Origin: Eledone cirrhosa
Taxonomy: Eukaryota
Direction of reading: 5' to 3'
Length of the DNA: 64,000 bases
Assembly: GCA_964016885.1 (NCBI GenBank)
Contig: OZ024758.1
Span: 30,256,001-30,320,000 of the forward strand
How positions within the stretch are numbered: position 1 is the stretch's first letter; every line of letters begins with the position of its first letter. Below are positions 6,501 to 9,500 of the stretch, piece by piece. The notes beneath the pieces were generated by a model. It saw only the letters and a program-made list of their open reading frames with translations, searched no databases and was not told where the DNA came from. A program made the translations under genes and the position numbers.

Positions 6501-9500
6501 GGTTATTTTTCATTTTGTAAAAAAAACCTCACTTTCTAATATATATATATATATATAAATATATATATATATAATATATAAATATATATATATATATATA
6601 TATATATATATATATAAATATATAAATAAGGGTGAAAGCACCGATTCTTTGCTTAAACTTTAATCTGTTCTTTTAATAAATATATATATATATATATATA
6701 AATATATATATATATATATATAAATATATATATAAATATATATATATATATATATATAAATATATATATAAATATATATATATATATATATATAAATATA
6801 TATATAAATATATATATATATAAATATATATATAAATATATATATATATATATATAAATATATATATATATATATATAAATATATATATAAATATATATA
6901 TAAATATATATATATATATATATATATATATATAAATATATATAAATATATATAAATATATATAAATATATATATATAAATATATATAAATATATATATA
7001 TATATATATATATAAATATATATATATATATATATAAATATATAAATATATATATATATATATATATAAATATATATATATATATATATATAAATATATA
7101 TATATAAATATATATATATATATATAAATATATATATATATATATATATATATATATATATAAATATATATATATATATATATAAATATATATATATATA
7201 TATATATATATATAAATATATATATATATATATAAATATATATATATAAATATATATAAATATATATATATATATATATAAATAAAGAAAAAGGGATGAA
7301 ATCTTTATAAATATATTTTTCTGGGTGGGAAATGACGATGGGATGGGTGGTGTAGGTATACTATTAGCTGACAAGTGGGTAGATAAAGTAATCTCAGTGT
7401 ACAGGGTAAATGCAAGAATCATTAAACTCAGACTAGTCCTGAATAAGACAATTACCACAATAATATCAGCTTACGCACCCCAATCGGGGCTGCCAGACGA
7501 ACTTAAGGATAGGTTTTACGAGTCCCTAATACACACTACTGCTCTAACAGACGACAAGGACTTCCTAATCATTGCAGGAGATTTTAACGGACACGTAGGT
7601 AAACACTGCGACGGCTTCAATAGAGTACATGGAGGCCATGGAGTTGGCACAAGGAATGAGGAAGGATTCAGACTAGAATTCTGCGACGCCAATGACATGT
7701 CGATATGTAACACAAACTTTAAAAAACCCGACAACCACCTGATCACCTATAGATCAGGGGAGCACTCTAGTCAGTTAGATTTTATCCTCATCAGAGGACG
7801 TGACAGATGGACGGTCGTAAACACAAAAGCCTTCCCTAGTGAGGAATGTACATCCCAACATAGCTTAGTTGTCAGCGACCTCACGGTCAAAACTAGACGA
7901 GCCCTGAAACAGAGGCCAACCTGGAGAAGAAAGATCTGGAAGCTGAAAGTCCCCTCAACCAGTAACAGATTGAAAGATATTTTACTCAACGCCTACGACA
8001 GTAAAGAAGAACAGATAGAGACATTTAACGTAGAAGAGAACTGGAAGTTCCTAAAAAATAACTTACTAGAGGCGACGGATGAGGTTTGTGGCTGGAGTAA
8101 GACCTCAAGCAGGAGGAGAGTGACTTGGTGGTGGAACAATAAGGTAGATGAAGCAGTCAAGGCCAAGAGACAGGCATGGAAAGAATGGAAGAACGGGGGG
8201 AGCAGGGTACATTACATAGAGACCAAGAGGGAAGCTAGGCGACAAGTATACTTAGCTAGGAGGGAAGCAGAGGATAGAAAATTCAAGCATGTTTTACAAC
8301 GTGAGGACCAGAAACAGGAGGTATTCAAGATTGCGAGGCAGTGTGTCAGAGATAGTTGTGATGTCATTGGAGAGAAGTGTATCCGGAATGATAAAGGTGA
8401 GCTTGCCCTCACAAGTGCTGAGAAGAAAGATGCATGGAAGAGTCATTATGATAGATTACTAAATGAGGAGAATGCATGGGAAGAAGAGACCCTACCCCAC
8501 GTAGACCCTATAGAGGGACCAGCAGTACAAGTCAGCGGCAGCGTAGTAAGTAAGGCAATCAGAGATATGAAGATAGGGCAGGCAACCGGTCCATCGGGTA
8601 TAGCTGCCGAGATGCTGAAGGCATCTGGGTCTGTAGGTCACACTATAACCACACGTATCGTTAACCAGGTAATACTAGAGGGGGCCATACCAAAAGATTG
8701 GTGCAGTAGCATCATTGTCAACTGCTACAAAGGTAAAGGCGATGCACTAGATAGAGGAAACTATAGAGGTATAAAGTTGATGGACAAGGTCATGAAAGTA
8801 ACAGAAAGAGTTATAGCACAGCTGATTAGGGACCGGGTGAATATAGACGAGATGCAATTTGGGTTTGTACCAGGGAAAGGCACCACTGATGCCCTCTTCC
8901 TTGTGAGGCAATTACAGGAAAAGTACCTAGCTAAAAGTAAGCCACTCTACTTGGCATTTGTCGACCATGTATAGGGGAGCAGTCAGCAAAGTTAGGATTG
9001 GCAATGAGTATAGCGAGGAATTTAGCGTACAGGTTGGGGTCCACCAGGGCTCTGTTCTTAGCCCTCTCCTGTTCATCATAGTCCTGCAGGCAATAACGGA
9101 GGAGTTTAAGACCGGATGCCCATGGGAACTCCTGTATGCTGATGACCTCGCACTCATAGCTGAATCTATGGTAGAACTAGAGAATAAATTCCAAACCTGG
9201 AAGCAGGGACTAGAGAGAAAGGGCCTCAAAGTCAACATGACAAAGACTAAGGTCCTTATAAGTAGACGAGAAAACAGAACCCAGATCCCCTCAGGGAAAT
9301 GGCCTTGCTCAGTATGTAGGAAAGGTGTAGGTAGGAACTCCATTCTCTGCCCCAAATGCAAACAATGGGTACACAAGAGATGTAGCGGGATCTCAGGAAG
9401 CTTAATTAAGAATGTAGGATTCACATGCAGCAGCTGTGCTGAAACAGCAAGCAAACAGCCACAGGAAACAAGTACCACCAATCTCTGGGAGGGCCCTGTA

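Follow-up and report, generated by a model that had tools for sequence, protein, structure and literature searches.

The window analysed here, a stretch of 64,000 nucleotides from Eledone cirrhosa (contig OZ024758.1; positions are counted from the first letter of the stretch), contains a long tandem array with a 39-bp unit and, at another place, a LINE copy in which a unit-like segment occurs once. This raises the question whether the single segment displays the state from which such an array grows, and by which mechanism. The preliminary description had proposed that the array was founded by slippage between two short direct repeats at the ends of this segment. The unexpanded site and its element comprise the following features:

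7520 to 7530, forward strand: 5' copy of the short direct repeat at the unexpanded site, GAGTCCCTAAT
7559 to 7569, forward strand: 3' short direct repeat of the unexpanded site, GACTTCCTAAT, identical to the 5' repeat at 9 of 11 bases
7286 to 9541, forward strand: truncated copy of an RTE-like LINE with endonuclease, RT and PHD-like finger distributed over two frames, containing the site once, as seen from ORFs and Pfam

The two 11-mers are offset by 39 bp and differ at their positions 3 and 5, with a longest perfect run of six bases. The imperfect direct repeats noted beforehand were confirmed at this spacing. A 16-residue peptide is readable in the forward frame across the site. The antisense frame was said to be already open at this place, and the expected 17-residue peptide is indeed present, but it is immediately ended by a stop. 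In that antisense frame, 70% of the 17-codon windows are open, and the open frame at the site is a matter of chance.

The element carrying the site is truncated at both ends and is covered by two ORFs (7286-8974 and 8931-9584). The endonuclease and the N-terminal part of the RT in the first ORF score under the Pfam cut-offs (21.6 vs 27.4 and 23.2 vs 29.6, respectively); the C-terminal part of the RT, located in the second frame, and the PHD-like finger exceed them. In relatives such as P0009 all domains are found in a single protein. The finger follows directly after the RT core at 8931-9584 and at 31008-32411, and also in P0009. At least six pieces of this LINE family are located within the window, and the copy at 7286-9541 is 97.8% identical over 582 columns to a copy at 31562-32143. 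Matches annotated as “craniofacial development protein” were also obtained, a label which usually stands for RTE endonucleases. Based on the meaning of these matches and on the preliminary description, the element can be addressed as a putative RTE-like LINE.

The array and its surroundings are organised as follows:

37640 to 37760, forward strand: left flank, decayed LINE endonuclease region matching about 7350-7519 (alignment)
37761 to 56285, forward strand: tandem array with a 39-bp unit; of its 475 units, 446 are forward and 29 inverted, and a partial unit of 11 bp follows at the end
37761 to 37771, forward strand: first end of the array, Glu type as in the LINE 5' end, the sole GAA start among the 475 units
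56275 to 56285, forward strand: terminal partial unit (11 bp), Ser type, running into LINE endonuclease sequence
56286 to 57445, forward strand: right flank, decayed LINE matching 7570-8873 (alignment, tblastn, three-frame translation)

It is the only array of this kind within the window, extends over 18.5 kb and consists of 55 distinct unit strings. Of the aligned columns, 90 of 109 are identical between the left flank and 7364-7519, and 933 of 1156 between the right flank and 7570-8873, i.e., the flanks share 81-83% identity with the 7520 copy. The unit itself matches 7520-7569 with 84% identity over 50 bp, and no unit-like match was found elsewhere in the window beyond the array and position 7525. 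These alignments support a derivation of the 39-bp unit from this LINE endonuclease site. The LINE copy hosting the array carries stops, frameshifts and deletions and is dead. The array is embedded in place in this second, decayed copy of the same family, and the 7520 element is therefore a paralogue with the pre-expansion state, not the parent of the array. Among the 223 differences between the host flank and the 7520 copy, 107 fall on third codon positions, which indicates that part of the flank divergence is between subfamilies. Outside three polymorphic sites the units deviate from their consensus by only about 0.3% per site, compared with 17-19% divergence between host flank and paralogue, and array growth is therefore probably recent relative to the insertion. 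Higher-order repeats occur in the array, e.g., a run of 20 identical units at a lag of 66. Unit 1 holds a derived variant common to units 181-199 and 473, showing that end units exchange with the interior and that the ends are partly overwritten.

Taken by itself, the pair at 7520 and 7559 is ordinary, since the element at 7286-9541 contains 33 distinct comparable 11-mer pairs (at most two mismatches, spacings of 10-100). Its significance lies in the coincidence with both ends of the 475-unit array. Microhomology of at least six bases was found at 505 of 196,651 random junctions in the same element (0.0026), and at this frequency a pair matching both array ends is beyond chance. The 7520 copy is valuable as evidence that this microhomology existed independently of the array.

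In order to see the site in further members of the family, public sequencing runs were aligned to 7320-7920 at 80% likeness. This covered four of 24 listed runs, whose species may not be that of the window. Aligned contigs numbered 49 in run X1, 2008 in X2 and 6 in X3, which identifies the LINE family as abundant; from the raw-read run X24, of which about 1 in 100 was sampled, 0 reads aligned, so that it provides no test. In run X2 no alternative letter with at least 5% of the depth is listed in either 11-mer. A family consensus lacking the 39-bp-spaced repeat, which would have refuted the preliminary proposal, is thus not seen in the 2008 contigs of this run, where the family retains C at the 5' repeat and T at the 3' repeat. 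The pair in the paralogue and in the contigs supports the view that the microhomology predates the array. The majority letters of X2 equal those of the satellite at two sites, 7531 (G instead of A, with 66% of the depth) and 7558 (T instead of G, with 78%), which brings them nearer to the satellite than the sequence at 7520; a variant at 7550 (A, 42%) differs from the satellite letter. Four core differences between the unit and the read-majority letters remain, at unit positions 24, 33, 36 and 38. In the host flank, a listed family variant is present at 18 of 27 aligned rows (31 of 34 rows were entered, and 4 lay in gaps). Compared with the contigs of X1, X2 and X3, the 7520 copy has a private 3-bp deletion at 7672. 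Copies with 2-10 units were not seen at the site, and all 11 listed joints in X1-X3 are skips, none of which goes back, although this is a weak test. A rise in depth over the site is likewise not visible in the X1-X3 contigs, which drop rare variants, so that this is no proof of absence.

With a probability of about 0.85, the array began by slippage or unequal exchange at a microhomology of the 7520 type inside a decayed LINE and was afterwards expanded and partly inverted. This reading is based on the LINE flanks, which are colinear on both sides, on the Glu-type first end, on the 11-bp partial unit, and on the repeat pair, which recurs in the paralogue at 7520 as well as in public contigs of the family. 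Of the slippage originally proposed, the source of the unit and the pre-existing repeat were upheld; the 7520 copy is, however, a paralogue, and the array grew in another decayed copy. In the proposed course, slippage or unequal exchange at the short direct repeat would produce the first duplication. The resulting 39-bp homology would then permit repeated unequal exchange and conversion, leading to 475 units at a time that is recent relative to the insertion, and blocks may have been inverted in place via template switching or recombination at an 18-nt quasi-palindrome in the unit. Some observations do not favour this origin. It leaves unexplained why this particular site was expanded among 33 similar pairs in the element, intermediates and a depth rise were not seen in the contigs, the pre-expansion state is seen in paralogues and not in the host's own allele, and the array ends are partly overwritten, with a derived variant in unit 1.

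The array might alternatively have been born in another copy of the family and then copied into its host by gene conversion or retrotransposition. The abundance of the family would allow this, and three of the four fixed differences of the unit are silent third-position changes suggesting a subfamily origin. Both flanks, however, join the array in exact register, and protein and metagenome searches, which are weak tests for non-coding DNA, gave no related array; we consider such a transfer unlikely. Even less probable is that the length of the array or its inversions are assembly artefacts. The array starts about 500 bp from a gap of 200 N, and a 361-bp stretch beside the gap is 97.8% identical to 33185-33545. 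The 55 unit strings, the regional variants and the higher-order repeats argue against an artefact, as does the first inverted block, which was duplicated together with its neighbours and whose copies have diverged since. An origin by slippage or unequal exchange in place remains the preferred reading.

The two main variants of the satellite, with Ser or Phe at the unit junction, had been equated with the two ancestral ends. At position 5 of the unit, T is found in 266 of the 475 units and C in the other 209, and these letters match both ends. The equation does not extend to the internal Ser junctions, which read GAC-TCC, a hybrid absent from both ancestral ends, nor to the last end of the array, which is Ser, whereas the family has Phe at the 3' end; in addition, two of the polymorphisms are sourceless. 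The claim as first made therefore stands at about even odds. We slightly favour a version in which Ser and Phe units preserve the two ends and the Ser junction is a hybrid of GAC and TCC from an early exchange between the two mismatches. There are just three common polymorphisms, and the one at position 5 shows precisely the two letters of the ends, both letters are found on the ancestral core, where they make up the most frequent haplotypes (153 and 70 units; a second Ser type also counts 70), unit 1 does exchange with the interior, and the family keeps C at the 5' end and T at the 3' end. On the other side, simple slippage at the perfect 6-mer yields Phe junctions only, the full 5' end (GAA-TCC) occurs in none of the 474 later units, the terminal end is of the Ser type, and the hybrid requires an exchange between mismatches only two bases apart. 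Moreover, the other two polymorphisms, at positions 19 and 30, reached 41% and 30% through A>G without an ancestral source. Such T>C/A>G changes make a new mutation at position 5 plausible (coincidence roughly estimated at 8-14%).

According to another scenario, the 3' end of the host first mutated to TCC, the resulting 8-bp perfect repeat triggered the duplication, and Phe arose later via C>T. This would account for the expansion of this copy rather than others and fits the Ser type at both array ends and the Ser majority in six of the first seven bins of 25 units. We regard it as rather improbable, since two changes at one site are needed, the second restoring the ancestral letter, and end units are known to be overwritten.

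Part of the array is inverted:

37822 to 47032, no strand assigned: six inverted blocks of 4, 4, 6, 1, 11 and 3 units

All 12 strand-switch junctions are located on the 18-nt quasi-palindrome of the unit (unit positions 23-40). In this stretch, 14 of 18 bases agree with the reverse complement, compared with 10 in the second-best register. The loop is in forward orientation at 11 junctions and reversed at one (39733-39750), and a flipped loop occurs in none of 436 forward-forward units. We infer that the 12 junctions represent one to five independent events, because the first two blocks go back to one duplicated event and the flipped loop at a single junction is what secondary recombination would give. 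The 11-unit block has variants local to its surroundings and both loops forward, which favours more than one event. Copying of neighbours by fold-back or ODIRA was rejected, as no block fully mirrors either neighbour. A match of the first arm to the neighbour was found in two of the six blocks, and these are one duplicated event. Inversion in place is therefore favoured over fold-back. A stable hairpin as the driver was also rejected; two units fold with an ordinary energy, since 55% and 52% of the shuffled units reach values as low or lower. A 5-bp stem with a loop of 3-12 nt is found in 28% of shuffles.

The quasi-palindrome might have contributed to the expansion itself. When made tandem, the 7520 unit is without an inverted repeat of at least four bases, and all four fixed differences between unit and family add a pair on the quasi-palindrome axis. 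Seven of nine pairs were reached by four random substitutions in 1.8% of 20,000 trials. Seven of nine pairs are also found in 11% of shuffled units, in 11 of 171 real LINE 39-mers and in 7 of 86 host-flank 39-mers. The three silent third-position changes among the four differences may belong to a subfamily. It is a doubtful idea that four substitutions made the quasi-palindrome between the microhomologies, and that this dyad licensed the 475-fold expansion and then drove repeated in-phase inversions. If true, birth sites of satellites would be predictable from the TE sequence as a direct microhomology plus a dyad, which would be testable across thousands of sister copies.

The array contains open frames of 2830 and 3430 codons. 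As the unit measures 13 codons and none of its 117 possible single-base changes gives a stop in the long frame, these frames are a by-product, and selection on them was rejected. That the array encodes a selected repeat protein is consequently very hard to believe. For such a protein speak a sense frame with one frameshift and no stop over 18.5 kb, and inversions which switch into the sole open antisense frame. The inversion register, however, lands on the open frame by a chance of 1 in 3, the host LINE is dead, and the unit motif is absent from protein matches. In a representative protein library, the unit motif and the endonuclease motif were each found in 0 of 85 matches, which represent unrelated repeat proteins, many of them with period 13. 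Peptide searches for other arrays found none among 7177 candidates and none among 8000. The array is most likely neutral DNA. A motif scan of metagenomes gave four matches, all at one near-identical locus that is dissimilar to the LINE and the window, and they were discarded as chance. This unrelated locus (L001-L004, 1290-1682) also contains an imperfect palindrome of 390 bp, centred beside the motif match and 87% identical to its own reverse complement.

Several other repeats were observed in the window. Arrays of a 48-bp unit are found at 10538-11131 (12.4 copies) and 21300-21562 (5.5 copies) inside a dispersed SINE-like family, of which other members (near 5762, 19148 and 30968) match the unit but are hardly or not at all expanded in tandem. 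The SINE-like repeats of the window are similar to cephalopod ones. This is a second family with low-copy intermediates. A 31-bp array at 12239-18599 consists of some 205 units, is strongly skewed towards G and has two internal duplications of 22 bp (14411 and 17052); its single-copy source was not found in the window for the ends tested. A 20-bp tandem array (1-324) extends past the start of the window; its other end is a short, incomplete unit. Between two (TA)n tracts, at 6177-6480, there is a long inverted repeat that looks perfect and has its centre near 6330. The 361-bp stretch mentioned above (36694-37054) ends at the gap (37055-37254) and is either a local duplication or a contig-end artefact.

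Regarding the element, the RTE-clade LINEs described in the available text of PMC9115989, PMC10294476 and PMC2790886 encode an AP-type endonuclease followed by the RT, as may also be the case here, where both apparently shared one ORF before decay. A zinc-finger-like motif is also common to both, termed rare in RTE by PMC9115989. Unlike in the LINEs described there, the finger scores as PHD, and both copies in the window are broken.

Inversions at short imperfect inverted repeats by template switch are described in the accessible parts of PMC8604942, PMC8755829 and PMC4417113, and ODIRA in those of PMC10766183. Similar to the template-switch inversions, the junctions in the array are located on short imperfect inverted repeats. 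In contrast to the cases covered there, each unit of the array carries this repeat, the inversions comprise entire units in phase, and the blocks do not mirror their neighbours as would be the result of fold-back or inverted triplication.

Satellites can arise from almost any part of a TE, as stated in the available text of PMC12628747, and satellites derived from TE segments are also treated in that of PMC6947457. The Alu minisatellites (Jurka and Gentles, 2006, as cited in the literature) are TE-derived tandem repeats, and like in these and other TE-derived repeats, a piece of a dispersed element has become a tandem array still embedded in the element. Here the array stems from a coding segment within the endonuclease of an RTE-like LINE, whereas the examples in the accessible text of the reviews are LINE untranslated regions, LINE-1, CR1 and LTR gag/pol; the word RTE has 0 occurrences in that text of PMC12628747 and PMC6947457. 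In the accessible literature, searched at the level of main texts, no report of this array was found.

The closest known system is the birth of minisatellites after Haber and Louis (1998) and Taylor and Breden (2000), as cited in the available text of PMC3389668 and PMC6947457. In this model, a segment between direct repeats of 5-10 bp is duplicated and then expands, and the last unit is incomplete. In humans, 300 of 7,276 TE-derived tandem repeats have flanking direct repeats according to the text of PMC3389668. Both hallmarks are present here, with a flanking direct repeat (a perfect run of 6 bases, 9 of 11 shared) that occurs both in the paralogue and in the family contigs, and an incomplete terminal unit at 56275-56285 equal to the flanking repeat. 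Unlike the cases covered there, the array has 475 units over 18.5 kb, its direct repeats are imperfect, and an unexpanded paralogue is located in the same window. The mechanism has long been published, and the array is a tidy new example which confirms rather than overturns it. It offers a clean natural before-and-after of the birth of a satellite, in which the site before expansion can be viewed side by side with the two junctions and the complete array, and the abundant family supplies many unexpanded controls. A potential new lesson would be the reason for the expansion of a single site, out of 33 similar ones, in one copy, and the role of the quasi-palindrome as cause or bystander.
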